DNA of 62,631 nt, from the NCBI GenBank assembly GCA_016182105.1, contig JACOXZ010000010.1, forward strand, positions 1 through 62,631. The letters run 5' to 3'. The position numbers and the translations under genes were made by a program. This document shows, one piece after another, positions 1,773 to 59,864 of this stretch; position 1 is the stretch's first letter, and each line of letters opens with the position of its first letter. The notes beneath the pieces were generated by a model. The model was given only the letters and a program-made list of their open reading frames with translations, ran no database searches and was not told the origin of the DNA. This DNA is from Candidatus Liptonbacteria bacterium (GTDB lineage: Bacteria > Patescibacteriota > Minisyncoccia > UBA6257 > 2-01-FULL-56-20).

Positions 1773-1863
1773 AGCGGAAAGGGTGGGATTCGAACCCACG
1801 GTACCATTTCTGGTACACAGTCTTTCCAGGACTGCCGTTTAAACCACTCACGCACCTTTCCGC
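1773..1863 (-). tRNA. tRNA-Ser(GGA)
   Basis: Minus-strand GCGGAAAGGTGCGTGAGTGGTTTAAACGGCAGTCCTGGAAAGACTGTGTACCAGAAATGGTACCGTGGGTTCGAATCCCACCCTTTCCGC. It has a 7-bp acceptor stem, anticodon loop CT-GGA-AA, a long variable arm and a GGTTCGAATCC T-loop. CCA is not encoded. Confidence 0.85.
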
Positions 1864-3552: not shown

Positions 3553-4338
3553 TCAAACCTTGCTGTGCTCGGTCTTGTACCACGGCAATCCATCCACCAT
3601 CTCGATGGTATAGTCGCCGAAAAGGTTGGGGTAACGTTTCGTCACGATCTCTCCGACTTTACCGAAGACGAGGCGGATTTCTTCCTCAGCGAATTTGTCT
3701 GTTCTCGCTTCAAGAACCCAGCGAATCGTTCTGGGGTTTGCCGACCAGCCAATCGTGGTCGCAAGGCCATCAGGAGCCAAGCGACGCATTGCCGAAGTGA
3801 TAACCTTCTTCCGGTGCATAGGAACACCGGGGTCGTCGAGCTTAAAATGTTCGGCCAATTCGACCTGAAGCGATTCAAGCTCTCTGAAGGTCTGCGCAAA
3901 AATCTCCACCGCTTCCTCGTCTTCTCGTATGGCTGTCGGCAACCACTGGCCAAGGTCGTCAAGCCGAACAAACCGGAGACTCTCTTGGGAGATAGCGACT
4001 CCGGGGCGGTGGCGCACCAGTTCGTGCGTGAAGACTCGGCTCACATCGGCGAAGATAAAATTAATAACCGGATGTTCGATGACCGAACCGTGCTTCACGT
4101 CAAGGATGTTGCCTATGTACTCCGCGTTCTCCTTGCGTACCTTGAGGACGTTCGGGTTCATCCCCGGTTTCCAACTTCGGTAGCAGAGGCGCCCATACAC
4201 CTCGATGATCCGTTCTATATCGGTTGGAGCGTCAGACTTCCACTCCGGAGCGCCGACGTGGTTCAGGTAGGCCCGAAGGCCTTCTTCAATAATCCTAGTT
4301 TCGCCAATGAGGTATACCTGCGGTTCAACTTTTCTCAC
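3553..4338 (-). CDS. thyX: FAD-dependent thymidylate synthase ThyX
   Basis: 261 aa. HELVRHRPGVAISQESLRFV contains the ThyX RHRxxS...S signature. GTG start preceded by AAAGGAGGAG. Confidence 0.9.
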   Translation of the reverse strand: MRKVEPQVYLIGETRIIEEGLRAYLNHVGAPEWKSDAPTDIERIIEVYGRLCYRSWKPGMNPNVLKVRKENAEYIGNILDVKHGSVIEHPVINFIFADVSRVFTHELVRHRPGVAISQESLRFVRLDDLGQWLPTAIREDEEAVEIFAQTFRELESLQVELAEHFKLDDPGVPMHRKKVITSAMRRLAPDGLATTIGWSANPRTIRWVLEARTDKFAEEEIRLVFGKVGEIVTKRYPNLFGDYTIEMVDGLPWYKTEHSKV

Positions 4339-4379
4339 AACTCCTCCTTTTTTCGATTTTCAAGTGCTTACTAACCCCC

Positions 4380-4448
4380 TCGACAAGCTCGGGGTAAACT
4401 GCCCCTACCCTACACCAAAAACCGTCCTTCGACAAGCTCAGGACAAGC
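4380..4448. repeat. direct repeats of (T)CGACAAGCTC(G/A)GG upstream of thyX
   Basis: CGACAAGCTCGGGG at 4381-4394, CGACAAGCTCAGG at 4430-4442, and a partial GACAAGC at 4442-4448. Confidence 0.7.
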
Positions 4449-4473
4449 CCCTCGTGCAAGGATTTACAAGAAA

Positions 4474-5478
4474 TTAGAAATTTAATTTTTCAATATTTTT
4501 TAATATGAAATCCTTATAGGTTTTAGAATCTTCTAGTTTTACTGAATTATTGACTGATAAATTATGTAGAGAGACTGCCTGAATTGCCGCACTGTATATA
4601 AAATAAAATAATTCGTGGTCTTCATTTAAAGATCCATAATAATCCTTATATCCCTGAATAAAGGCTTTAGAATACTTTTCTCCCATCAAAATAAAAATAT
4701 CTGTAGCTGGTCTATAAATATTTATCCACGGAGAAACAATCATCCAATCTTCTTTTGGGGGATAAATATCCAAAAAAAACATCTTTCTATCTTGATAGAA
4801 AATATTATCGGAATGATTATCTAAAGAAACTACATATTTTGATTTATCGAAATTAAGGAAATACTCTTTTCTTTTTTCTAAATATTCTCGTAAAACTTTG
4901 ATTATTTCGTCTGTCTTTTCTTTCGTAAAATAATCGGGAGCAGAATACATCCAATCTTTTAAATCATCAAATCTTCTTTGGAAAATATCATAATAACTTT
5001 CATGGGTTTTTGGTTGGTGGGAATATAGATCAACGGCTTTTGTTTGCTGGAATCCCATACTTCTAAAATCCATTTCCGTTAATGATTTTTCATGCAAAAG
5101 ATGGCTGAGATTATATTTCAAATCAATCCTCTTCATTTTCATAACAACATCTTCAGCGCTATCAACATTATTGGTAACTACAACCTTACCATCGGCAATA
5201 TTTACCCCATAAACGTTCAAATAAACGTCAGGACTGAAATAATTATTCTCAAAAAAATCTGATTTATAAAAATCTATTCTTGTTTTTCGATCAGCTAAGT
5301 TCCTGAAGTGGTCGTTAAAAAACGCATTATCCCTTTTGCAAATTTTATATACGGTTTTGGGAAATAAAAATATCTGTGAAATTTGAGTTTCTATACGTTT
5401 AGGAATTAACCCTTTTTCTTCAATATTTTCTATCTTACCCTCTAAAAATGAATTGATAATTTTTTTATAATTCTCCAT
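4474..5478 (-). CDS. hypothetical protein, aminoglycoside-phosphotransferase (APH)/kinase-like fold
   Basis: 334 aa and very AT-rich. LDNHSDNIFY resembles the APH catalytic loop (D....NIF) and FFLDIY resembles the following metal-binding D motif. Assignment is tentative. Confidence 0.45.
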   Translation of the reverse strand: MENYKKIINSFLEGKIENIEEKGLIPKRIETQISQIFLFPKTVYKICKRDNAFFNDHFRNLADRKTRIDFYKSDFFENNYFSPDVYLNVYGVNIADGKVVVTNNVDSAEDVVMKMKRIDLKYNLSHLLHEKSLTEMDFRSMGFQQTKAVDLYSHQPKTHESYYDIFQRRFDDLKDWMYSAPDYFTKEKTDEIIKVLREYLEKRKEYFLNFDKSKYVVSLDNHSDNIFYQDRKMFFLDIYPPKEDWMIVSPWINIYRPATDIFILMGEKYSKAFIQGYKDYYGSLNEDHELFYFIYSAAIQAVSLHNLSVNNSVKLEDSKTYKDFILKNIEKLNF

Positions 5479-5483
5479 ATCTA

Positions 5484-6236
5484 CTATTTTTCAACAATAA
5501 ATTTTCTTTTTCCTTTATCGAATATAATATTATCTTTCCGTTCACCACGAAATTCAGCAGAAATTTTCGTTTCCTTACGAACAGAGTCATAGTCGAAAAA
5601 GATACGCATTCCCTCGCCATATCTCATTCCTTGTCCCTCTTCAACCTTATAGCCAAAAATATCCTCCATAACGGGATTTAAAAACTCGAAATGACTAGCT
5701 CCGATAATATGGAGCTTTTTGTTTTCGAGCTTGGCGTGTCGTGCAAGGTAATCAATCGCATTAAAGACACGTCCGGCTCGTTCCCGTACTTCCGGCTGAC
5801 TTTCAAACTTATCGCTTTTTTCTTGAAATCGCGGATCTCGTGCATATGTAACGTCAAATGGACTCTGCTGCGCCTCAAATTCTTTAAAGAGCTCGGTAAA
5901 ATATTCCTTGTCTTTCTGATCGAAATTGCGCATTGAGGAAATAGCTGACTTCTTATGTATATCAATACCTCTCTGATCTAATACCTCCTTCAAAATCTCC
6001 GAGGATCCCTGAGCTCGGCGCGCCGGAGAACTCCATAAAACAACAATCTCTTTTTCGGGATCGATTCCCTCAACAATTTTTTCGGCGCTCTCCCTCACTT
6101 GTTCCTCTCCCTTCTCGGTTAAATCTCTTCCTTCATTCGTGTAAGCAGATTGACCATGACGAAAAAAATCCACGATAACCTCATTGACTTTAGGCTCCGA
6201 CTCCCGACTTTCAGTAAACCATTTTTCTTGTTCCAT
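5484..6236 (-). CDS. histidine phosphatase (phosphoglycerate mutase-like) family protein
   Basis: 250 aa. DFFRHGQSAYT (RHG motif) near the N-terminus and GASHFEF (second His) later. AT-rich like its neighbour. Confidence 0.7.
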   Translation of the reverse strand: MEQEKWFTESRESEPKVNEVIVDFFRHGQSAYTNEGRDLTEKGEEQVRESAEKIVEGIDPEKEIVVLWSSPARRAQGSSEILKEVLDQRGIDIHKKSAISSMRNFDQKDKEYFTELFKEFEAQQSPFDVTYARDPRFQEKSDKFESQPEVRERAGRVFNAIDYLARHAKLENKKLHIIGASHFEFLNPVMEDIFGYKVEEGQGMRYGEGMRIFFDYDSVRKETKISAEFRGERKDNIIFDKGKRKFIVEK

Positions 6237-21730: not shown

Positions 21731-22741
21731 TCACGGCCTCAAGTTCACAACTTTTTTAGATTTAGAAGACTCGTAAATCGCCTCAATAATTTTATTTGCC
21801 GCAAGACCGTCATTGGCGTCGCCGATAATTTTTTCTTTGCCGCTTACCGCTCCCAGAAAATTTCTCCACTCATCTTCCCAACTTGAGTCTTTTAGGAATT
21901 CCAGAGTCTCTATGTCCGGAACCCCGAACTCTGGCTTTCTCTTTCCTATGGTTAAAGTCTCTGGGCCGTAACTCTTTCCTAGACCTTGAACGGCCAAAAA
22001 TCCCTTATCCCCAAAAGCTTCAAAAGAAAAAATGTTCTTCCAGTTGGTGGTACTCACATGAAAAGAAGCAGTAGTGTTTTTGTTTCTCAAAATTACAAAA
22101 GCGTTGTCTTCAAGATCGGTGTTCCAAAATTTCGTTTCGGCAATGCCATAAACCTCATCAAATTCACCAGCGAACCAGCGGCACAAATCGATGAGATGAA
22201 CTCCTTGATCCAAAAGCTCTCCGCCTCCGGAGATGTCTTTATTGAAACGCCACTCTTTTTCCATTCCAAGCCGTCCGCCGTGACCGTAGCGCCCGCGAAT
22301 AAAAAGAATCTTCCCGATAAGCCCTTCGTCAAAAAGTTGTTTCGCCTTAAAGATCGCCGGGTGGAACCGATGATTGAACCCGACTTTGACGATACGTCCG
22401 CTCCCTTCCGCCGCGTGATAAAGCTTCTCGGCTTCTTGGGCATTTTTCCCGAATGGCTTCTCCGCAAGAATATGCTTTCCGTTTTCAAGCGCCTTTAGGG
22501 CAATGGGCAGAAGAAATTTATTTGGAACGGCAATGATTACGATATCTATATCCTTCGAAGCGACGAGGTCTTCCCATCTCTCAAAAATTTGAGAGTGGTG
22601 ATCCTTGGAAAACTCCAGGGCTTTTTTCCTATCAATATCGCTTACAGCGACTAAAACTGCGCCTCCCACGTTCTCTATCACCTCAGCCCGCTTCCCGCCA
22701 ATAAGACCGGCTCCGACAATGCCAACGCGGATAGTTCTCAT
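21731..22741 (-). CDS. Gfo/Idh/MocA-family NAD(P) oxidoreductase
   Basis: IRVGIVGAGLIGGKRAE...ILAEKPF. Confidence 0.85.
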   Translation of the reverse strand: MRTIRVGIVGAGLIGGKRAEVIENVGGAVLVAVSDIDRKKALEFSKDHHSQIFERWEDLVASKDIDIVIIAVPNKFLLPIALKALENGKHILAEKPFGKNAQEAEKLYHAAEGSGRIVKVGFNHRFHPAIFKAKQLFDEGLIGKILFIRGRYGHGGRLGMEKEWRFNKDISGGGELLDQGVHLIDLCRWFAGEFDEVYGIAETKFWNTDLEDNAFVILRNKNTTASFHVSTTNWKNIFSFEAFGDKGFLAVQGLGKSYGPETLTIGKRKPEFGVPDIETLEFLKDSSWEDEWRNFLGAVSGKEKIIGDANDGLAANKIIEAIYESSKSKKVVNLRP

Positions 22742-22853
22742 CCCGTTAGAAGCAGATCGCGATCTAGGCGAATCTGCAGATTTATTTTATCGTAATGACT
22801 ATACATTGATTGATATTCAGAGTTTTTGCAACGAGATCGCGGCTTCTAACGGG
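22742..22853. repeat. stop/start-bridging inverted-repeat element, copy 1 (112 bp)
   Basis: CCCGTTAGAAGCAGATCGCGATC...GATCGCGGCTTCTAACGGG. It fills the whole gap between the stop at 22856-22858 and the start at 22741. Confidence 0.85.
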
Positions 22854-22855
22854 AC

Positions 22856-37474: not shown

Positions 37475-38266
37475 ATGGTTTCTAAAAAGATTCTAAAAAA
37501 TAAAATAAAGCAGGCCTTCCCTTTTTTGACCCCCGCCTACCGTTTCCTCAAATACGGGGTTAGGATCATGCGCTGGGTTCCAACATATGACGAGGATGAT
37601 TTAATTACAAATCACCTCTGCGATTTTTTAGAGGACGACCGCTTTATTAAAAGCCTTGCAACGACAGAAAAAGAAGGGCATCTTCAACTCGGCTATGTGG
37701 TGAGATGGCGGCTCTATACAGCCTGCTGGGCGGCAGATCACGCGAAAAACCTAGACGGAGATTTCGTGGAGTGCGGTGTGGCATATGGCGCAACAAGCCG
37801 CATGATTATGGAGTACATCGGCTTCAAAAATATAAGTAAGAAATTTTATCTCCTGGATACGTATGAAGGATTGGATGAGCGATATCTTTCTCAAGACGAA
37901 CGCTTACGTCTAGTAGAGTATAAAAAAACAGGAAGCTACCCCTACACGTCGGCCATGTATCCATTCGTAAAAAAGGCGTTTGGCTCATTCCCTAACGTAA
38001 CTATCGTAAAAGGAGCGGTACCTGAAACCTTGGGACAGGTGAAGTCGGAGAAAATAGCATATCTACATATTGATATGAACTGCACCGTGCCGGAAATAGC
38101 GGCGGCTGAATACTTCTGGCCCAAAATGGTGAAGGGGGCCGTAATGCTTTTGGATGACTACGGATTCGCCCGGGAACAGCACGACGCGTTCGACAAGTTT
38201 GCCAAAGAAAGGAGCATAGGCATTCTTTCCCTGCCTACCGGGCAAGGGTTGATGATAAAGCCCTAG
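37475..38266 (+). CDS. TylF/MycF-type O-methyltransferase
   Basis: ECGVAYGATS...LLDTYEGL...VKGAVPETL...YLHIDMN...LLDDYGF. Confidence 0.8.
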   Translation: MVSKKILKNKIKQAFPFLTPAYRFLKYGVRIMRWVPTYDEDDLITNHLCDFLEDDRFIKSLATTEKEGHLQLGYVVRWRLYTACWAADHAKNLDGDFVECGVAYGATSRMIMEYIGFKNISKKFYLLDTYEGLDERYLSQDERLRLVEYKKTGSYPYTSAMYPFVKKAFGSFPNVTIVKGAVPETLGQVKSEKIAYLHIDMNCTVPEIAAAEYFWPKMVKGAVMLLDDYGFAREQHDAFDKFAKERSIGILSLPTGQGLMIKP

Positions 38267-42979: not shown

Positions 42980-43979
42980 ATAAATTCATATTTCTCTTAA
43001 ACCAATCCACCGTCAACTCAAGCCCGTTTCGCAAACTCGTTTTCGGCGCCCAATTTAATTTTTTCCTTACAAGTTTTGTATCCGCAACCCAACAACTGGT
43101 ATCAAAAGAACGGGATATTTTTTTATCCCAGACAGGCTTAATATCCACGCCGATAATATTTTTTATTATGGAGAAAATTTCCGCGAGATTTGTCTGTTTG
43201 CCAGTGCCAATATTGAAAATTGCTCCAGTAGAAGGATGAGCGGCGGCAAGAAGAAAGGCGCTCACCACATCGTCGATAAACACGAAATCTCTGACAACAG
43301 AAGGCGTTGAGAGATGCGGCCTTCTTTTTTTTATAAGAGAAACTATGAGGTTCGGCACTAAACGGCCGAGTGGTTCATAAAAACCGTAAGCGGAAAATGG
43401 CCTCAGGGTTACTATCGGCACCTTTCGATTTAAAGCGAGATATCGGCCGTAAAGCGTCGCCCAGGCCTTACTCGCTCCGTATGCGGTATTAGGGTCAAGC
43501 ATGTCGGCTTCTCGCATCGGCTTTTTTTTCGTTCCGTACTCCGACGAGGTTCCGGTATTGATAAAGACGTCGAATCCTTCCCCTAAACAAGCTTGCATTA
43601 AATTGAAAGTGCAAATAATATTCGTATCTATTATCTCCTGTTCGTCGTACTGTTCTTGTGGATAAGCTCCGTGCGTTGCCAGATGAAAAATTGTTTTTGG
43701 TTTTATTTTTTTTATAAACCGATTCGTCGCTAGTGGATCCCTCAAGTCGATAATGTACGTTGATACGACCCTCAAAAGATCGTCGATCCTCCAGGTACGG
43801 GCGTTTTTCCGCAGGATGACATAAACCTTTTTCGGTTGCGCTTCGCGCACAAGCCGCCGCAAAAGATTCGAACCCACAAAACCACTCGCGCCGGTGATTA
43901 AAACCGGGGTGGAAAACTTTAATGACTTGGCTTCGAAACCCATTCGTTGCATTTTAATGCCGCGCGAAAGCGAGGTCAA
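42969..43979 (-). CDS. NAD-dependent epimerase/dehydratase
   Basis: PVLITGASGFVGSNLLRRL...YGASK. The track start is TTG at 43979; internal ATGs at 43952 and 43943 are alternatives. Confidence 0.8.
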   Translation of the reverse strand: MTSLSRGIKMQRMGFEAKSLKFSTPVLITGASGFVGSNLLRRLVREAQPKKVYVILRKNARTWRIDDLLRVVSTYIIDLRDPLATNRFIKKIKPKTIFHLATHGAYPQEQYDEQEIIDTNIICTFNLMQACLGEGFDVFINTGTSSEYGTKKKPMREADMLDPNTAYGASKAWATLYGRYLALNRKVPIVTLRPFSAYGFYEPLGRLVPNLIVSLIKKRRPHLSTPSVVRDFVFIDDVVSAFLLAAAHPSTGAIFNIGTGKQTNLAEIFSIIKNIIGVDIKPVWDKKISRSFDTSCWVADTKLVRKKLNWAPKTSLRNGLELTVDWFKRNMNLYEA

Positions 43980-44006
43980 TGCGCCGCTAACGCGCGCGAA
44001 GCTTTA

Positions 44007-44278
44007 GAACCCATCTCAAAAATCCCTTCGGCCGCGATATAGGCAAATCTTTCGCGGCGCAAGAAGCAAGGACGAAGGTGTATCCTATGATACTCCGAGT
44101 CCGAAGCGACGTGGTGCCGCGAAAGATTGGCCATATCCCCAGGGGGTTGCGGAGATTTTCTTCTCCCACTACGTTGCGGCTTCGTCGGAGTGGCACAAGC
44201 CACACATTCCTCGCCGCGCCTTGCGTAGAGAAGAAAATCTCTCGCAACGCGGCTAGAAGGGATTTTTGAGATGGGTTC
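44007..44278. mobile_element. E1: 272-bp structured (MITE-like) element bounded by terminal inverted repeats
   Basis: Perfect 22-bp terminal inverted repeats GAACCCATCTCAAAAATCCCTT / AAGGGATTTTTGAGATGGGTTC. Internal 14+5 bp helix GTTGC-g-GAGATTTTCTTCTC / GAGAAGAAAATCTC-tc-GCAAC. Homologous to E2 in reverse orientation. Confidence 0.75.
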
Positions 44279-45215
44279 GAATAAAAGTTTTCAATCTTTT
44301 ATAGATAATCCATACGCCCCAGACGACCGGATAAATACCGTATTTCTTCGCGAAATAAATATCCATAATCTTTCTGTATTTTCTGCGCTTCCACGGAGTT
44401 TTGTTGATGTAGTAAACATATTCCGGCTGATAGGGAAGCGCTGAGAGAAAATACCACGGTTTTCCGCCGCCCGCGAAGTGGACAACGAGCGGATCGGGTT
44501 CGTTGTAGGGATATGCCCCTATGGGTATCGCGGCGGCTATGAGATTGTATTTTATGCCAAGCTCTCTGTAGTCGCCCGCAAACACAAGGTTAAGAGCGTC
44601 TTGCTCGTGATATCGCAACTTGTCCGGATACTCATAGATCAACCTGTGAAGTTTTTCTTCTATGCCGCGCTTTCTCCAAAGCTCCAAATCAACAAGAAGC
44701 ATTCCGACACTGAAATACGCGGACTCTTGCGACGCAATGGGCCAATTGATGTCTTTGCGCAGCTTTTTCAAATGCCCCTGTCTTTCTTCTTGCTGACAAT
44801 CCGCGATTGCTCCTATTGTTTTCCTGCCCAGGTCCACGTTAAATAGTTCGGAAATATCCCCTCGAATCACCACGTCAACTTCAAGATTGATTACCCTGCG
44901 ACATGTAGGGGGAAGAAAACGCCCCAAATAAACGCGGTGAAAGGCCTCTACTGGAGCGTGAAATCCCTTAGACAAATCACCAAGCGGCAGTCCTTGGTAA
45001 AGCTTTTTATCAGGAAGAACATAGTTTATCGTAAATCCATATTTCTTCTCCAGAGTCTCCAATCGCTCTTTATTTTTTGCTGATATTCCAAAATCTACGA
45101 CGTAAAGGCTTATCGGGTAATCCCCTTTTTTGTTTTCGAAAAGAGAACACAAGGCAACCCCAAGGAGCATGGCGTAATTATCATTCGTGGCAAAAACAAC
45201 AGATACTTTTTCCAT
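44253..45215 (-). CDS. glycosyltransferase family 8
   Basis: VSVVFATNDNYAMLLGVALCSLFENK...NLEVDVVIRGD. Start taken at MEKVS. The last 8 codons (RTHLKNPF*) lie in the E1 terminal repeat. Confidence 0.85.
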   Translation of the reverse strand: MEKVSVVFATNDNYAMLLGVALCSLFENKKGDYPISLYVVDFGISAKNKERLETLEKKYGFTINYVLPDKKLYQGLPLGDLSKGFHAPVEAFHRVYLGRFLPPTCRRVINLEVDVVIRGDISELFNVDLGRKTIGAIADCQQEERQGHLKKLRKDINWPIASQESAYFSVGMLLVDLELWRKRGIEEKLHRLIYEYPDKLRYHEQDALNLVFAGDYRELGIKYNLIAAAIPIGAYPYNEPDPLVVHFAGGGKPWYFLSALPYQPEYVYYINKTPWKRRKYRKIMDIYFAKKYGIYPVVWGVWIIYKRLKTFIRTHLKNPF

Positions 45216-45237
45216 TTGCTTAAAAATTATAATAGTC

Positions 45238-46098
45238 CTACACCTTATACCAGACAAACAAACGGAGAAGTGCCACTAGATTCCAAAATATAAGTTTAAT
45301 TCTGTCCCACATCTTTAAAGATTTTAAGCGCAATATAAAGATCATATTCGGGAAGTAAAGCGGTGAAAAAAACAACACAAACCTGACTTTGATATTGGAT
45401 AATACGCGTTTAATTCGCATAGACACACGTGGATTGGGATCAAGAACAAAAATTTTGGTGCGCTTATAAAAAAGAATTTCGTCGACGAGGGTAAAATGTC
45501 CCCTGACCAAACAGCGAAAAAGGAAGTCATACTCAAGAAATGGCTTGTCAATAAATTTACAATCAACAATTTTCTCGCGCCTCCAAACTCCATACGTCAT
45601 GTTGCCCTTTCCCCCAAGAATTGTAAGCAGAATAAATTCCTTGAGGCGTCCGTACAGATCCTTCTTAAACGTGAAAAATAATTTCGGATCTTCTTTTTGT
45701 GTCCTGCCTAAATCGTCGAAATGCATGAGTTTAGATATGGCAGCAATCGCTTCCTTGTCCGCATCCAAGGCGGCTATACATCTTTCCACGAAAGTCGGCG
45801 CCCGCTTATCATCGTCCGAAGCCCATATAAAATACTCACCTCTGGCATTTTTTTTGAGATATTCGAAGTTTCTGGCGTGGCCTATATTCGATCTCTGCCG
45901 TATATATTTTATACGTCGGTCCTTTTTCGCGTATTCCTCGCAGATCCGCGGAGTGTCGTCGGTAGAGGCGTTATCGGATATAACCAGCTCAAAATTTCTA
46001 TACGTCTGCGCAAGCAGCGAATCCAATGCCTCGCGCAAATAAGATTGCCCGTTATGCGTAGCTAAGCCGATGCTTACCAATTTTTCTTTAGAACCCAT
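45238..46098 (-). CDS. glycosyltransferase family 2
   Basis: MGSKEKLVSIGLATHNGQSYLREALDSLLAQTYRNFELVISDNASTDDT. The start ATG at 46098 and the GGAGG RBS lie inside the E2 terminal repeat. The track ORF extension to 46242 is read-through into E2. Confidence 0.85.
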   Translation of the reverse strand: MGSKEKLVSIGLATHNGQSYLREALDSLLAQTYRNFELVISDNASTDDTPRICEEYAKKDRRIKYIRQRSNIGHARNFEYLKKNARGEYFIWASDDDKRAPTFVERCIAALDADKEAIAAISKLMHFDDLGRTQKEDPKLFFTFKKDLYGRLKEFILLTILGGKGNMTYGVWRREKIVDCKFIDKPFLEYDFLFRCLVRGHFTLVDEILFYKRTKIFVLDPNPRVSMRIKRVLSNIKVRFVLFFSPLYFPNMIFILRLKSLKMWDRIKLIFWNLVALLRLFVWYKV

Positions 46099-46366
46099 CT
46101 TAATAATACCTCCAGCCCGCGTTGCTGGCGATTTTCTCGTATCCGCAAGGCTTGTCGAGTGAGCTGTGCTTGATGCACTGCGATCGAGGCGTAACGCAGC
46201 GGGACGGGAAAATCGCCGCAACCCCAAGGGGGATATGGCCAATTTCCGCAGTACCGGCGTCGCTTCCTCCTCGGAGTACCACAGGAGGGTACACTTTCGT
46301 CGTCGTTCCTTGGTCTTGCAGAAATTGGCTCATATCGCGAGCGGAGATATTATTAAGATGGGTTCT
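46091..46366. mobile_element. E2: 276-bp structured (MITE-like) element bounded by terminal inverted repeats, inverted relative to E1
   Basis: Terminal repeats GAACCCATCTTAATAATACCTCC / GGAGATATTATTAAGATGGGTTC (1 mismatch). Internal helix GTTGC-t-GGCGATTTTC / GAAAATCGCC-GCAAC. The core GGGGATATGGCCAAT is the reverse complement of the E1 ATTGGCCATATCCCC. Confidence 0.75.
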
Positions 46367-46384
46367 GCCTTGGTCCATAAAAAG

Positions 46385-47116
46385 CTATCTGACTCTCCTT
46401 AAAAATCCTCCAGGCGCGGCGGTAATTAGAAGTTTATTTTCAATATCCCTATCGGCGACAAAATTTTTATGTTTCTTTAAAAATTCCCGGACGGCAGTGG
46501 CCGGATTATTCCCCTTGCCCCACGGGCGGTCTTTTACCATCCCTGTTGGCAGATACTCGACGATGGTATCAAAGACAATAATATAGCTTCCGCGGCTCAC
46601 GAACCGCGAGTAAAGTTCAAGTTCCTGTAAAACGTGCGCGGACGTATGGCTGGAATCCAGGTAAACCAGGATTTTTTTCTTGCCGCGGGTCAAACCTTTA
46701 ACGCGGGCGATGACTTTGGCATCAATAGAGGATCCTTCGATCATTTTAATTCTTTTGAACATTCGGTGCTTTTCGATCTCGATCCTGTTATGGGAACGGA
46801 TATCAATATCAACCCCCAAAACCCGGCCATTGCCGCCGATAAGTTCCAGCATTGACGCCGAAAAAATCAAAGAGCCGCCGCGGGCAATTCCTGTTTCAAT
46901 AATCAAATCGGGTTTCACCTTCCAAATGATCTCTTGGAGCGCAATGATGTCTTGCGGATACTGGATAATCGGCCTTCCCAGCCAGTCAAAATTATAGGAG
47001 TAACGGCCGCGGATGGAACCAACCATAAAATTGGCGGCAACTTTTTTGAGCTTCCTATCGCGAGACAATTTTTTGAGGTTTAGGCGTCGCTCACTCTCAA
47101 ATACGGGATCTTTCAT
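46385..47116 (-). CDS. CmcI (cephalosporin hydroxylase)-family methyltransferase
   Basis: YSYNFDWLGRPIIQYPQDIIALQEIIWKVKPDLIIETGIARGGSLIF. Confidence 0.8.
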   Translation of the reverse strand: MKDPVFESERRLNLKKLSRDRKLKKVAANFMVGSIRGRYSYNFDWLGRPIIQYPQDIIALQEIIWKVKPDLIIETGIARGGSLIFSASMLELIGGNGRVLGVDIDIRSHNRIEIEKHRMFKRIKMIEGSSIDAKVIARVKGLTRGKKKILVYLDSSHTSAHVLQELELYSRFVSRGSYIIVFDTIVEYLPTGMVKDRPWGKGNNPATAVREFLKKHKNFVADRDIENKLLITAAPGGFLRRVR

Positions 47117-55997: not shown

Positions 55998-56936
55998 TTA
56001 TTGAGACGAAAGTTCGCGCACAATGCTTTTATAGTCAATGTCCATTGCGTCTGAAACAGGATTCAGCCAGTTATCTCCAAGCTTACGTTTTATGAAAATA
56101 TCTTTTTTAAGACTGATGCCGCGCGCGGCTGCGAGCAAAGAAAAACAGGATAAATTCTCGCTTTTGCTGTCGTCGAACACGACTAGCTTTCCTGTTTTGC
56201 GTACGCTCCTCAAAATCGGCTCCCAGTCAATAGGAGTCATATAGCTTACATTAAAAACCGCGGGTTTCAAGCCGGTTTGTTCCATTTCGAGGCCGAGCTG
56301 CCAGCCGTACGGGAAGGAAAAATTAAAAGTGACGATCGTCGCATCGCTACCGTCCCTATACTGCACGAACTTCATATCCTTGTCCGCAAGGATCGGCTCT
56401 CCGGGATCGATAATATCGTCTTTATACATCCTCTGACTGAAACTTATAATGCGGAATCCGGGTCTGCCAAAATGGATGTCGATGATTTTCTCTGTGTCAT
56501 ACTTATTGGTAACCGCGTAGCCATCAATCCTCGCCATAGAACAAAAATCCGCGAAGTTATTGGAACTCGACTGTGGCCCTTCATATCCCATATCAACCGT
56601 GACTGGCAATATCGTGAATGAGCCCTTAGCGTGCTTGCTATTTCTTATGATGTTATAGGTGTTAACCAGCTGATCAATGCCCAAGAAAAGAAAATCAAGT
56701 TGTTTCATGAAGAATGCCGCCTTCCCGCCGCCAAGCATCACGCCGAACCCAAACCCGACAAGCGAATTCTCGGTGTTTGTCGTATTGATGATCATGCCCG
56801 TCTCTTTTACCGCAAATCCTTTCGTAAAACCGCTGATACGGGAGCCGGCGCTAACGTTCTGACCATAAACCACGAGTCCGTCGTGCGAACTGACCGCATT
56901 ACGCAGAACCGCGTTGACGTGTTCAAGATATTTCAT
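55998..56936 (-). CDS. divergent E1 beta-like (transketolase C-terminal-like) subunit
   Basis: 312 aa. NTTNTENSLVGFGFGVMLGGGK, in the position of the E1-beta EagfvG motif. Follows an E1-alpha-like gene. Confidence 0.65.
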   Translation of the reverse strand: MKYLEHVNAVLRNAVSSHDGLVVYGQNVSAGSRISGFTKGFAVKETGMIINTTNTENSLVGFGFGVMLGGGKAAFFMKQLDFLFLGIDQLVNTYNIIRNSKHAKGSFTILPVTVDMGYEGPQSSSNNFADFCSMARIDGYAVTNKYDTEKIIDIHFGRPGFRIISFSQRMYKDDIIDPGEPILADKDMKFVQYRDGSDATIVTFNFSFPYGWQLGLEMEQTGLKPAVFNVSYMTPIDWEPILRSVRKTGKLVVFDDSKSENLSCFSLLAAARGISLKKDIFIKRKLGDNWLNPVSDAMDIDYKSIVRELSSQ

Positions 56937-57964: not shown

Positions 57965-58864
57965 TTAAGATCCGAGCGTGCTTGTATAGGGATCGATGGT
58001 CTTTATGCCTTCTTTAAAACCGATCTCTGGTTTCCATCCTAAAAGCTCCTTTGCTTTTTTATTGGAAGGGTTGCGCATATTCGCATCGTGAGGATTCGAT
58101 TCTATAACCTTCACTTTTTTATGAAACAGCTTCTCGCTTTCACTTACAACATCCCCCATCGTTATCATCTCATCGCCTGAAAGATTGAATATCTGAAAAT
58201 CGTTCCTGCCAAAAGCCAGACGGATGCCTCGAGCAATATCTACGACGTGTACAAAGCGGCGGCCTGACTTACGGGAACGCATAAGCGTCACGGTGTCATT
58301 GCGCTTTACGTCATCCGCGACAGATTCCACGGCACACCAATCATCTTTGCGGGGCCCGTAGACAATAGCAAAACGTAAAATAGTTACCGGGATGAATCCA
58401 CGCTTATATTGCTCGCGAAGGTTCGCTTCGCTCACGAGCTTTGAAAGCGCATATTCGGAGGTGTGGCCTGTGATATCAATGAACGAATCTTCATCTTTTT
58501 CTTCATCACCCACGAATTTCTCATATACCCATTCGCTTGAAGGAAATATGAGTTGTTTCGCTTTTTTCGCCTGGGCTATGCGCATCACATTCAGGAGCCC
58601 CATAACATTCGTCGCGAAACATTCATACGGCTTGCCGGCGCACTGGCTGTCGCGCGAAAGTGCGGCAAGATGCACAATCGCGTCTGCATCTTCTGGAAAA
58701 CTATCGGCAATTGCAGAATCTCTGACGTCACCGATCTTAAACCCGTAAGAAAGTTCATTCTTCTTAAGAAGATCGAAGCCAATAACTTCAATGCCCTCCC
58801 TCAAACATTGTCTAACTAGCTCTGTTCCTATGAAACCCTCAGATCCGGTTACGATGATTTTCAT
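57965..58864 (-). CDS. NAD-dependent epimerase/dehydratase
   Basis: MKIIVTGSEGFIGTELV...YALSK. Confidence 0.85.
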   Translation of the reverse strand: MKIIVTGSEGFIGTELVRQCLREGIEVIGFDLLKKNELSYGFKIGDVRDSAIADSFPEDADAIVHLAALSRDSQCAGKPYECFATNVMGLLNVMRIAQAKKAKQLIFPSSEWVYEKFVGDEEKDEDSFIDITGHTSEYALSKLVSEANLREQYKRGFIPVTILRFAIVYGPRKDDWCAVESVADDVKRNDTVTLMRSRKSGRRFVHVVDIARGIRLAFGRNDFQIFNLSGDEMITMGDVVSESEKLFHKKVKVIESNPHDANMRNPSNKKAKELLGWKPEIGFKEGIKTIDPYTSTLGS

Positions 58865-58984
58865 CCCGTTAGAAGCAGATCGCGATCAACACGATTCTGC
58901 AAGGTTATTTTATGGCAACGATTATGCATCGGGTAAAATTATAGTTTTAACAATTTTAACAAAGCGATCGCGGCTTCTAACGGG
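58865..58984. repeat. stop/start-bridging inverted-repeat element, copy 3 (120 bp)
   Basis: Its termini are identical to copy 1 (23 nt on the left, 20 nt on the right). The upstream ORF stops at the TAG inside the arm (58977-58979). Confidence 0.85.
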
Positions 58985-59864
58985 ATTCATAGTCACGAAT
59001 TGTTTTTTTAATTCCTGTTTTTATATCAACCAGCGGACGCCAGCCGAGATCTCTACGTATATTTTTGAGCCCCGCATAGGCTGCATTCTGAAGTTTCCCG
59101 CGCGATGTACGGAAAAATGCGTTGTAATATTCCCTACTCGCTCCCATTTCTTTGCAGACCATCTCTGCGATGTCTCGCACAGGCGTGAGGTGGCCCGAGC
59201 CCAGGTTGTAAGTCGCACGACCCTTCCCACGCAGGGCGGCATCTGCAAACGCCCGCGCCACATCCGACACATATATGAAATCACCCTGTGCGAGCGGATA
59301 CTTGAGCCGAAGCGGAACATTTCCTAGAACGGTGCGCATTATGTATGGTATAAGTGAGCCGGTCCTTTGTCCATATCCATAAGGGTTGAAGGGACGCAGC
59401 CAGATAAAATCCATATTTCTTTCCTTCGCAAGCTCCTCTCCCATAAGATGAAGGGCGTGTTTCGCTGCTGTAAACGCAGTCACTGGCGTAATGCTCATTT
59501 CCTCGTTAAGCTTGCCGATGCTCTTCCCGTATTCAAAAGAGCTTCCAGCCGCAACTATTTTCTTACAGCCGATATCTGCAAGAGCGGAAAAAATATTAAG
59601 ACTTCCCTCAAGGTTTTTCACGCTTTGTGCGTATGAAAAATCGGGAATGCCTTCCCAGGCGAGATGAACCGCAACGTGAGGCTTGAATTTTTTAAGCCGC
59701 CCTTTCCATTTCGCGATGTCAGAAAGATCGCCTTTTATAAAATCGATGCCGCGCTCCTGATGGTTTTTGCGGGAGAGCACAAGCAGACGATGCCCCCGTT
59801 TTTTAAGTTCTTGAATCGTGTAACGGCCTATAAAACCAGTGCCTCCAGTCACGAATACCCTCAT
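58977..59864 (-). CDS. NAD-dependent epimerase/dehydratase
   Basis: MRVFVTGGTGFIGRYTI... Confidence 0.85.
   Translation of the reverse strand: MRVFVTGGTGFIGRYTIQELKKRGHRLLVLSRKNHQERGIDFIKGDLSDIAKWKGRLKKFKPHVAVHLAWEGIPDFSYAQSVKNLEGSLNIFSALADIGCKKIVAAGSSFEYGKSIGKLNEEMSITPVTAFTAAKHALHLMGEELAKERNMDFIWLRPFNPYGYGQRTGSLIPYIMRTVLGNVPLRLKYPLAQGDFIYVSDVARAFADAALRGKGRATYNLGSGHLTPVRDIAEMVCKEMGASREYYNAFFRTSRGKLQNAAYAGLKNIRRDLGWRPLVDIKTGIKKTIRDYESR

Follow-up and report, generated by a model that had tools for sequence, protein, structure and literature searches.

A mobile-element-like insertion with a putative translational relay at the start of a glycosyltransferase gene in a Patescibacteria operon

In a 62,631-nt contig of Candidatus Liptonbacteria bacterium (JACOXZ010000010.1), the whole of which is called the window below, the ribosome binding site and start codon of a GT2 glycosyltransferase gene lie within one arm of a long inverted repeat. 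How can a gene be translated when its initiation region is buried in this way, and what is the repeat doing there? The original prediction, made from the letters of the window, was that the repeat unit (termed E2) forms a large riboswitch or translational switch or, alternatively, that it is a mobile module whose ends carry outward-facing starts. The comparisons described here favour the alternative. E2 is an insertion in the first codons of GT2, it belongs to a dispersed family of structured elements, and it probably carries a translational relay by which ribosomes pass from the upstream gene to GT2. Coordinates are those of the window, and E2, GT2, the GT8 glycosyltransferase gene and the methyltransferase gene are read in mRNA sense, that is, on the minus strand. 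The positions of the features are given in Table 1.

The insertion at the GT2 start

The inverted arms of E2 (46090-46113 and 46343-46366) are 24 nt each, are 96% complementary and have 229 nt between them; they depart from Watson-Crick pairing at one position, a G-U pair on the mRNA (minus) strand. This agrees well with the long complementarity, with one G-U pair, that had been proposed to an arm about 230 nt upstream. The span first given for E2, 46091-46366, is right at 46366 and is corrected to 46090 at the other boundary. In the minimum-free-energy (MFE) fold the closing helix extends to ~36 bp and encloses two ~100-nt hairpins that flank a small central CCCC/GGGG hairpin, so the helix does close a multi-helix domain. 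The fold of the 285-nt E2 sequence has a free energy of -139.7 kcal/mol, compared with -86.6 +/- 4.7 kcal/mol for dinucleotide shuffles (z = -11.2; none of 200 shuffles equalled it). The plus strand of E2 folds as well as the minus strand.

The Shine-Dalgarno (SD) sequence GGAGG, a 10-nt spacer and the GT2 AUG all fall in the 3' arm at the positions expected, and the same ATG was picked as the GT2 start by a gene caller on an identical Logan contig. In a model of a 451-nt transcript the probability that the SD and AUG are unpaired is below 0.001. Opening of the GT2 start, from -18 to +12, costs 38 kcal/mol, compared with 5.6-10 kcal/mol at the other start sites of the operon. The earlier claim that the initiation region is locked in the helix therefore stands, the start being paired with a probability above 0.999. 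An SD-like motif 4-13 nt before the start is found in only 7 of the 49 confident genes in the window, the remaining genes mostly having A/T-rich leaders or overlapping the gene upstream; the GGAGG of E2 is among the strongest SD motifs in the window. An intrinsic terminator, that is, a GC-rich hairpin followed by a U-tract, was considered for the closing helix and rejected: a terminator scan found none there, and the 3' arm is followed by UAAAGAAAAAUUGG instead of a U-tract. The identical Logan contig (L001:3311-3541) ends within E2, which fits an assembly breaking at a repeat.

The genes around E2, all on the minus strand, encode an NTP-transferase, a 4,6-dehydratase, an RmlD-like protein, a CmcI-type methyltransferase, GT2, GT8, an epimerase and a split transketolase, and the set is a sugar-nucleotide and glycosyltransferase cluster. 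The relatives of GT2 put the window in Patescibacteria, and related operons show what the locus looks like without the element. On a Paceibacterota contig a gap of 5 nt, free of the element, separates the methyltransferase stop from the GT2 ATG, and in four closer groundwater lineages the order is RmlD, methyltransferase, 6 nt, GT2, ~50 nt and GT8, with the site of E2 and that of a second copy, E1, both empty. Identity of GT2 to these relatives with empty sites is 83-63% overall and 83-75% in the four closer lineages, whose GT2 begins MDQGREKLVSIGL. Their N-terminus is of the type MDQGREKL and not MGSKEKL, a clear answer to the check on orthologues lacking the element that was proposed with the original prediction. 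Just upstream of E2 the window retains TAG-CTTTTT-ATG GAC CAA GG, the old gene junction and start, and removal of the 277 nt from AGAACCC to GGGTTCT yields an in-frame MDQGKEKLVSIGL. The empty sites in relatives and the surviving ATG GAC CAA GG lead to the conclusion, on this comparison of sequences, that E2 is an insertion that split GT2 after codon 4, at a codon boundary, and that the MGSK start is supplied by the element end. The GT2 reading frame is intact over its 286 codons.

E1 interrupts the same operon in the opposite orientation. Its removal restores a GT8 gene ending in ...KTFIKASRALAAH, and the GT8 ends of relatives differ from the RTHLKNPF of the window; by the same kind of comparison, E1 is inserted ~9 codons before the end of GT8 and has displaced its last ~9 codons. 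Three of the four E1/E2 ends had been said to read GGGTTCTAAAG, but only two do so; it is the shorter GGGTTCT that is found at three of the four. The possibility that E1 and E2 are the arms of an invertible segment was considered and set aside, since the two copies are only 71% identical.

A family with stop and start codons in its terminal repeats

A full HMMER scan with the 92-aa product of the open reading frame (ORF) that crosses E2 gave 21 ORF clusters. Their ends are conserved (RTHLKNTSARDMSQF... and ...PCGYEKISRNAGWRYF) and their middles change reading frame from copy to copy, so that the conserved unit is DNA and not protein; a protein-coding reading of the element was rejected on these grounds. 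Eight distinct DNA copies were obtained, E1 and E2 among them and the other six from the contigs of the ORF clusters. They are 270-295 nt long and 67-89% identical, and the source names include Candidatus Niyogibacteria and Harrisonbacteria. All eight have near-perfect terminal inverted repeats (TIRs) of 24-30 nt beginning AGAACCCATCTCAAAAATA..., and their ends read T(A/G)A G ATG GGT TC(T), in front of which come an A/T-rich stretch and a run of purines. Only E2 and the L100 copy have GGAGG as the purine run, the others having GGRRR; the SD sequence noted in E2 is real but is not a trait of the family. A flanking TA is present on the right side of six copies and on the left side of four, only if the ends are set at GAACCC...GGGTTC. 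These features point to a previously unannotated, ~275-nt, structured, non-coding, TIR-bounded family in Patescibacteria (Parcubacteria-type) that resembles the MITEs, or miniature inverted-repeat transposable elements. Given its dispersed copies and the empty sites in relatives, it bears out the suggestion of a mobile module with an outward-facing start, the movement itself presumably being by transposition.

The structure is conserved along with the ends. In an alignment of the eight copies (A4) the 97 pairs of the structure are 93.8% paired, compared with at most 48% when the partners are slid against each other; compensatory changes are seen in 31 pairs, against 3-9 in the slid controls, and none of 500 shuffles reaches any of these measures. 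When the E2 fold is projected on E1, all 17 double changes preserve pairing. Columns 55-71 and 95-108 of A4 hold conserved purine-rich stretches, CAAGGAGCGACGACG and GAGGAGGAAGCGAC, which lie opposite each other in the first hairpin and form a large internal loop there; a variant, GAGTCCGAAGCGAC, of the second stretch is common to E1 and the L100 copy.

The third shared property is an arrangement of stop and start codons. Six of the eight copies share a length of 1 mod 3, and in them the frame from base 1 (AGA ACC CAT...) is open to a terminal TAA or TGA that lies 1 nt before ATG GGT TCT. E1 and E2, whose discovery owed nothing to ORFs, both have this length and an open frame 0 ending 1 nt before the ATG. 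The E2 frame is open in 2.6% of dinucleotide shuffles. Over all six frames of the family copies 75 stop codons are seen where ~148 are expected, and the depletion extends to frames that were not used for finding copies. The difference between TAA and TGA is itself a compensated change in the TIRs that keeps the stop codon.

At the insertion sites the open frame is joined to the interrupted genes in a recurring way. In E2 the old GT2 ATG, 6 nt past the upstream stop, opens the 92-codon ORF. In the L093 copy the stop of the sigma gene overlaps the ATG of the through-frame as ATGA, the TGA being completed by the first base of the element, and removal of the element restores a canonical ATGA; in the L095 copy the corresponding overlap is TAATG. 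In all three a G comes after the stop of the through-frame, and next to it stands the ATG GGT TCT with which the downstream gene now begins; in the L094 copy the ATG of the element is in frame with CorA. Each of the four intragenic 5' insertions falls between two codons, 1-4 codons past a start codon. Right after the full L094 element, at L094:634-649, is the sequence AGAACC TGT ATGGGTT, to which the annotated ATG of CorA belongs; it looks like both termini of a second copy with the interior deleted.

Some through-frames have been deposited as proteins. P0050 (MBI5742747.1), P0061 (MBI2406028.1) and P0055 are translations of the element through-frame entered as a ‘hypothetical protein’, the only name that such ORFs bear in their source records, from Niyogibacteria and Harrisonbacteria metagenome-assembled genomes and from IMG, and these records are probably spurious gene calls. 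A cluster at 90% identity, P0052, has 14 members on many contigs.

Other searches for the family added no copies. An exact-pattern scan with the core GCAACCCC..GGGGATATGGCC(AAT) had no match in GTDB genomes or viral contigs, its two matches in JGI metagenomes being due to chance, and a TIR-to-TIR pattern gave one chance match in viral contigs, inside a phage tail gene. Word-indexed protein searches with a plus-strand pseudo-ORF and with a concatenation of all 12 frames returned no family members, and nhmmer found no further copies over 84 loci around GT2 relatives. The idea that other gene starts are solo ends of the element was not borne out, the 8-mer ATGGGTTC not being above chance outside full copies (5 seen, ~8 expected in ~271 kb). 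Two gene starts that resemble those made by the element but belong to no copy of it, which may be due to chance, are at 37475-37486 of the window (ATGGTTTCTAAA, an 11/12 match to ATGGGTTCTAAA) and at L093:3235-3247 (TAG ATGGGTTCT A). An IS1595-family DDE transposase gene (L100:6578-7261) lies 3 kb from the L100 copy; its inverted repeats (GGTTCAAGACTAG...) are unrelated to the TIRs of the element.

Table 1. Positions of E2 and E1, of the genes that they adjoin, and contexts of the other copies
Feature	Position	Strand	Remarks
E2, 277-nt insertion, AGAACCC...GGGTTCT	46090..46366	-	Inverted-repeat pair; nhmmer model match 1-273; missing from orthologous loci
5' arm of closing helix (left TIR in mRNA sense)	46331..46366	-	MFE fold; helix 1 of alignment A4, 97% paired, 8 covarying pairs
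3' arm of closing helix	46090..46125	-	GGAGG 46113-46109; TAA 46102-46100; new ATG 46098-46096
E2 interior, two ~100-nt hairpins around CCCC/GGGG hairpin	46121..46335	-	Helices 2-8, 23 covarying pairs
GT2 glycosyltransferase	45238..46098	-	Pfam PF00535; first three codons, ATG GGT TCT, supplied by E2
CmcI-type methyltransferase, directly upstream	46385..47116	-	Pfam PF04989; C-terminus intact; TAG-6 nt-ATG junction kept in relatives
92-codon ORF across E2	46100..46378	-	From vestigial GT2 ATG 46378-46376 (6 nt past methyltransferase stop) to TAA 1 nt before new ATG
E1, second copy, 274 nt	44006..44279	+	71% identical to E2; antisense to operon
GT8 glycosyltransferase	44253..45215	-	Last 8 codons and stop (RTHLKNPF*, 44279-44253) read from E1
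12-codon ORF MGSKASRALAAH*, orphaned GT8 tail	43976..44014	-	Begins at outward ATG of E1; TGA overlaps TTG of epimerase ORF
L091 and L092 copies			Intergenic
L093 copy			Between ECF sigma gene and its downstream partner
L094 copy			In front of CorA
L095 copy			Between 86-aa gene and amino-acid-transporter-like gene; same locus in several Hainich samples
L100 copy			3' end of ClpP

Translation across the element

A mechanism can be proposed by which translation would be carried across E2. The closing helix would arise as a by-product, by pairing of the two TIRs once the element is transcribed within the operon mRNA. Ribosomes arriving from the methyltransferase gene would initiate at the old ATG (46378) and, as they translated along the 92-codon relay ORF, unwind the ~36-bp helix; they would then terminate at the UAA and reinitiate at the AUG at 46098 to make MGSK-GT2. 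The cost of opening the GT2 start, 38 kcal/mol as against 5.6-10 at its neighbours, is what creates the need for such a relay. De novo 30S initiation at the buried start would be negligible, particularly where a genome depends on A/T-rich leaders without structure, so that GT2 output would be coupled strictly to translation upstream, as had been the case before E2 inserted. At E1, ribosomes translating GT8 would read 8 codons into the 5' arm and so free the 3' arm, and the outward ATG would resume the old frame. A MITE-like element with a translational relay is, on the features seen in the DNA, the reading that seems probable, and with it goes the view that relay by termination and reinitiation keeps GT2 expressed. 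Of the ‘translational switch’ first proposed, sequestration of the start is real and a dependence of GT2 on upstream translation is probable, but sensing of a ligand falls away.

A broader suggestion is that mobile elements have adapted to the ultra-compact operons of Patescibacteria. With a stop-restart module in the TIRs, a stop-poor interior and a length of 1 mod 3, an insertion in the first or last codons of a gene could be bridged by a relay ORF, avoiding polarity and leaving the coupling enforced by the helix. This is put forward tentatively, with somewhat less confidence than the relay at E2 itself. Such an element would, if that holds, be a counterpart in nature, and a transposable one, of the synthetic bicistronic-design leader.

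Several observations weigh against these proposals. It was ORF calls that led to six of the eight copies, a mode of discovery that partly selects for an open frame 0 with an ATG close upstream, and only E1 and E2 are unbiased; in the L100 and L092 copies the stop or the ATG is gone. Counts of G-U and A-C show a symmetry between the two strands, which also fold about equally well, so neither measure favours one strand as the functional one, and the pairing may be kept at the DNA level, through a single-stranded DNA intermediate or arm-to-arm template switching, and not for the RNA. As to mobility, no identical direct repeat that could be a target-site duplication flanks the eight copies and the TA flanks depend on where the boundaries are set; no autonomous element with matching TIRs was found among the 101 loci examined, and no contig was seen with more than two copies, the term MITE resting on the TIRs, the dispersal and the empty sites.

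The excess of amino acid substitutions in GT2 bears on a different reading, in which the insertion is merely tolerated or mildly harmful. The helix would largely silence GT2, leaving a hypomorphic or decaying gene, and the ORF and stop/start would be incidental to a GC-rich palindrome. In relative-rate tests of the window against L086 and L089, GT2 has 23 unique changes in the window compared with 11 in the relative (p = 0.04), whereas the adjacent methyltransferase does not show this (11 and 10); RmlD has 7 and 15. The twofold faster change of GT2 in the window lineage also fits relaxed constraint after partial silencing, to which it gives a weak pointer. The very tight pairing of the start and the large opening energy speak for silencing as well, as does the bias of ORF-based searching towards open frames, and polysaccharide clusters tolerate the loss of glycosyltransferases. 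On the other side, GT2 is intact; the unbiased copies E1 and E2 both have the 1 mod 3 length and a frame open to stop-G-ATG; the layout of stop overlap, relay and stop-G-ATG is repeated at two unrelated operon junctions; and stops are depleted also in frames that played no part in finding the copies. Silencing is accordingly regarded as unlikely, although it is the strongest competitor of the relay.

The ~36-bp helix could also be cut by RNase III, which would part the upstream and downstream mRNAs and free, or destabilise, the GT2 start. A long near-perfect duplex is the type of substrate that this enzyme uses, and cleavage at the TIRs is known for transcripts of the Neisseria Correia elements (PMC10969869). 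The explanation depends on the host having the enzyme and on its cutting at E2, the arms could remain paired after cleavage, and the 1 mod 3 length, the open frame and the stop 1 nt before the ATG are left unexplained. As the sole explanation, processing by RNase III is rated improbable; it could coexist with the relay.

In another reading an outward promoter within the element starts the GT2 transcript past the 5' arm, so that the helix is absent from the translated mRNA. Correia elements do carry promoters (PMC3184786), and E2 has a weak sigma-70-like match, TCGCCA-17-TATTAT, ending at 46103, with a mirror-image match at its other end. However, the match is only 9/12, the TATTAT is specific to E2 (other copies have TATTTTTGAG) and its transcript would begin no earlier than the AUG, which makes this promoter very unlikely.

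The first reading of the locus, a riboswitch or translational switch by which GT2 would respond to a ligand, shares with the relay the covarying multi-helix domain and the sequestered SD and AUG, but little else fits it. A riboswitch is expected in a fixed orientation before related genes; here there is an inverted copy, E1, in the same operon, and the copies flank GT2, a sigma-factor partner, CorA, a transporter-like gene, the 3' end of ClpP and intergenic DNA. Junction and loop conservation with a match to a curated family would also be expected. Mean column conservation is 88% at paired positions and 90-91% in the TIRs, as against 78% at unpaired positions and 77% in the central junction, and this lower conservation of loops and junction than of pairs and TIRs is the opposite of the pattern of an aptamer. 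No relevant Rfam family was found at gathering thresholds over the whole window or at an E-value of up to 10 over 43900-46500. Orthologous operons lack the element, and its two strands fold alike. The riboswitch is thus a most improbable reading, and a false candidate can be removed from consideration.

Removal of the element at the RNA level, like an intron, to restore the ancestral MDQG... ORF is the least credible reading of all: the ends are joined by a long helix and exact removal restores the frame at four sites, but removal of any insertion would do so, models of group I, group II and other ribozymes give no match, the loops are poorly conserved, and the translational features would be pointless if spliced out.

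Relation to known elements and other features of the window

The element has the hallmarks of a MITE, being small (270-295 nt, where MITEs are below ~600 bp) and without coding capacity of its own, with TIRs, dispersed copies and both filled and empty sites. It is like the Chunjie, Correia and ERIC elements in these respects and in empty-site polymorphism, co-transcription within operons, very stable RNA hairpins and an ability to overlap gene ends; Chunjie elements, for instance, are 178-235 bp with dG of -98 to -130 kcal/mol (PMC3184786). It differs from all three in having no evident sequence similarity to them and in containing two covarying hairpins rather than forming one long hairpin. 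Correia elements duplicate TA and Chunjie has 9-bp direct repeats, whereas a clear target-site duplication is lacking here, and the 26-bp TIR of Correia is, by eye, unrelated to that of the element, whose TA flanks are in any case boundary-dependent. No IHF site or promoter is evident in the element, a search aimed at IHF sites not having been made. The combination of 1 mod 3 length, through-ORF and stop-G-ATG in the TIR is not described in two reviews (PMC3184786, PMC10969869), and a literature search on MITEs in the Candidate Phyla Radiation gave nothing relevant.

Individual parts of the arrangement have precedents. The Neisseria REP2 repeat also carries a ribosome binding site and ATG (PMC3184786), but REP2 and the Borrelia IR have no TIRs, carry a promoter, act in one direction, occur upstream of genes and not within them, and have no described relay ORF. 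In integrons, short ORFs relieve the translational block from attC hairpins, and ORF-11 in attI1 gives translational coupling (PMC8876359). The parallel with the proposed relay is close: a structured site of a mobile element blocks ribosomes on a polycistronic mRNA and a short ORF relieves the block. The site itself is of another kind, attC being a single hairpin of 57-141 bp, recombined by IntI and held in one orientation in an array, whereas the element is ~275 nt, branched and symmetric, lies within the termini of ORFs and has inverted copies. No integrase or integron array was seen around E1 and E2 in a window that has not been annotated in full, and, with neither a single hairpin nor a same-orientation array beside intI, the element is not an integron attC. 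By analogy, it might be described as a MITE with a ribosome binding site and ATG, in the manner of REP2, combined with an internal ORF in the style of attC.

Rickettsia palindromic elements insert in protein-coding genes without destroying them (PMC10969869). They do so by being read in frame within the host protein, in contrast to the present element, in which the length is 1 mod 3 in six of eight copies and the host ORF is stopped and restarted. Termination-reinitiation is itself widespread at overlapping gene pairs (PMC6728339). The element would differ from other couplers in being carried about on the ends of a repeated insertion, whereas structure-enforced coupling and bicistronic design are a fixed gene feature or an engineered part. 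In these systems the downstream start is buried in the upstream cistron, and a ribosome unwinds the structure and reinitiates at an adjacent stop/start.

If the relay is true, a selfish repeat has been able to colonise genomes with almost no intergenic space by carrying the translation signals that repair its own damage. The helix, relay ORF and stop/start would also make a compact natural part and a candidate translational coupler. For the annotation of candidate-phyla genomes, the family means that through-ORFs are deposited as ‘hypothetical proteins’, that MGSK... starts are element-derived, that ...RTHLKNPF* ends are insertion artefacts and that assemblies break in the element.

The window has a second, unrelated TIR element, read in minus-strand sense, with copies at 22741-22854 (114 nt; fold z = -4.7) and 58864-58985 (122 nt; z = -6.8) and TIRs of TCCCGTTAGAAGC...GCTTCTAACGGGA. 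The genes at its two junctions are non-homologous to each other. In contrast to the E1/E2 family it has 4-bp target duplications, which differ between the copies: TGAG at 22855-58 and 22737-40, and TGAA at 58986-89 and 58860-63. A TAG in the left TIR is the stop of the upstream gene, and the downstream ATG is made up of the last A of the right TIR and the duplicated TG. A third gene start of this type, with TCTAACGGG ATG, belongs to the gene at 55998..56936. A tRNA-Ser(GGA) gene (1774-1861, minus strand) is the only Rfam or ARAGORN match in the window. The region 4001-6000, with two minus-strand ORFs (4474-5478 and 5484-6236), has 36.8% G+C compared with 46.5% for the whole window and may have been horizontally acquired.

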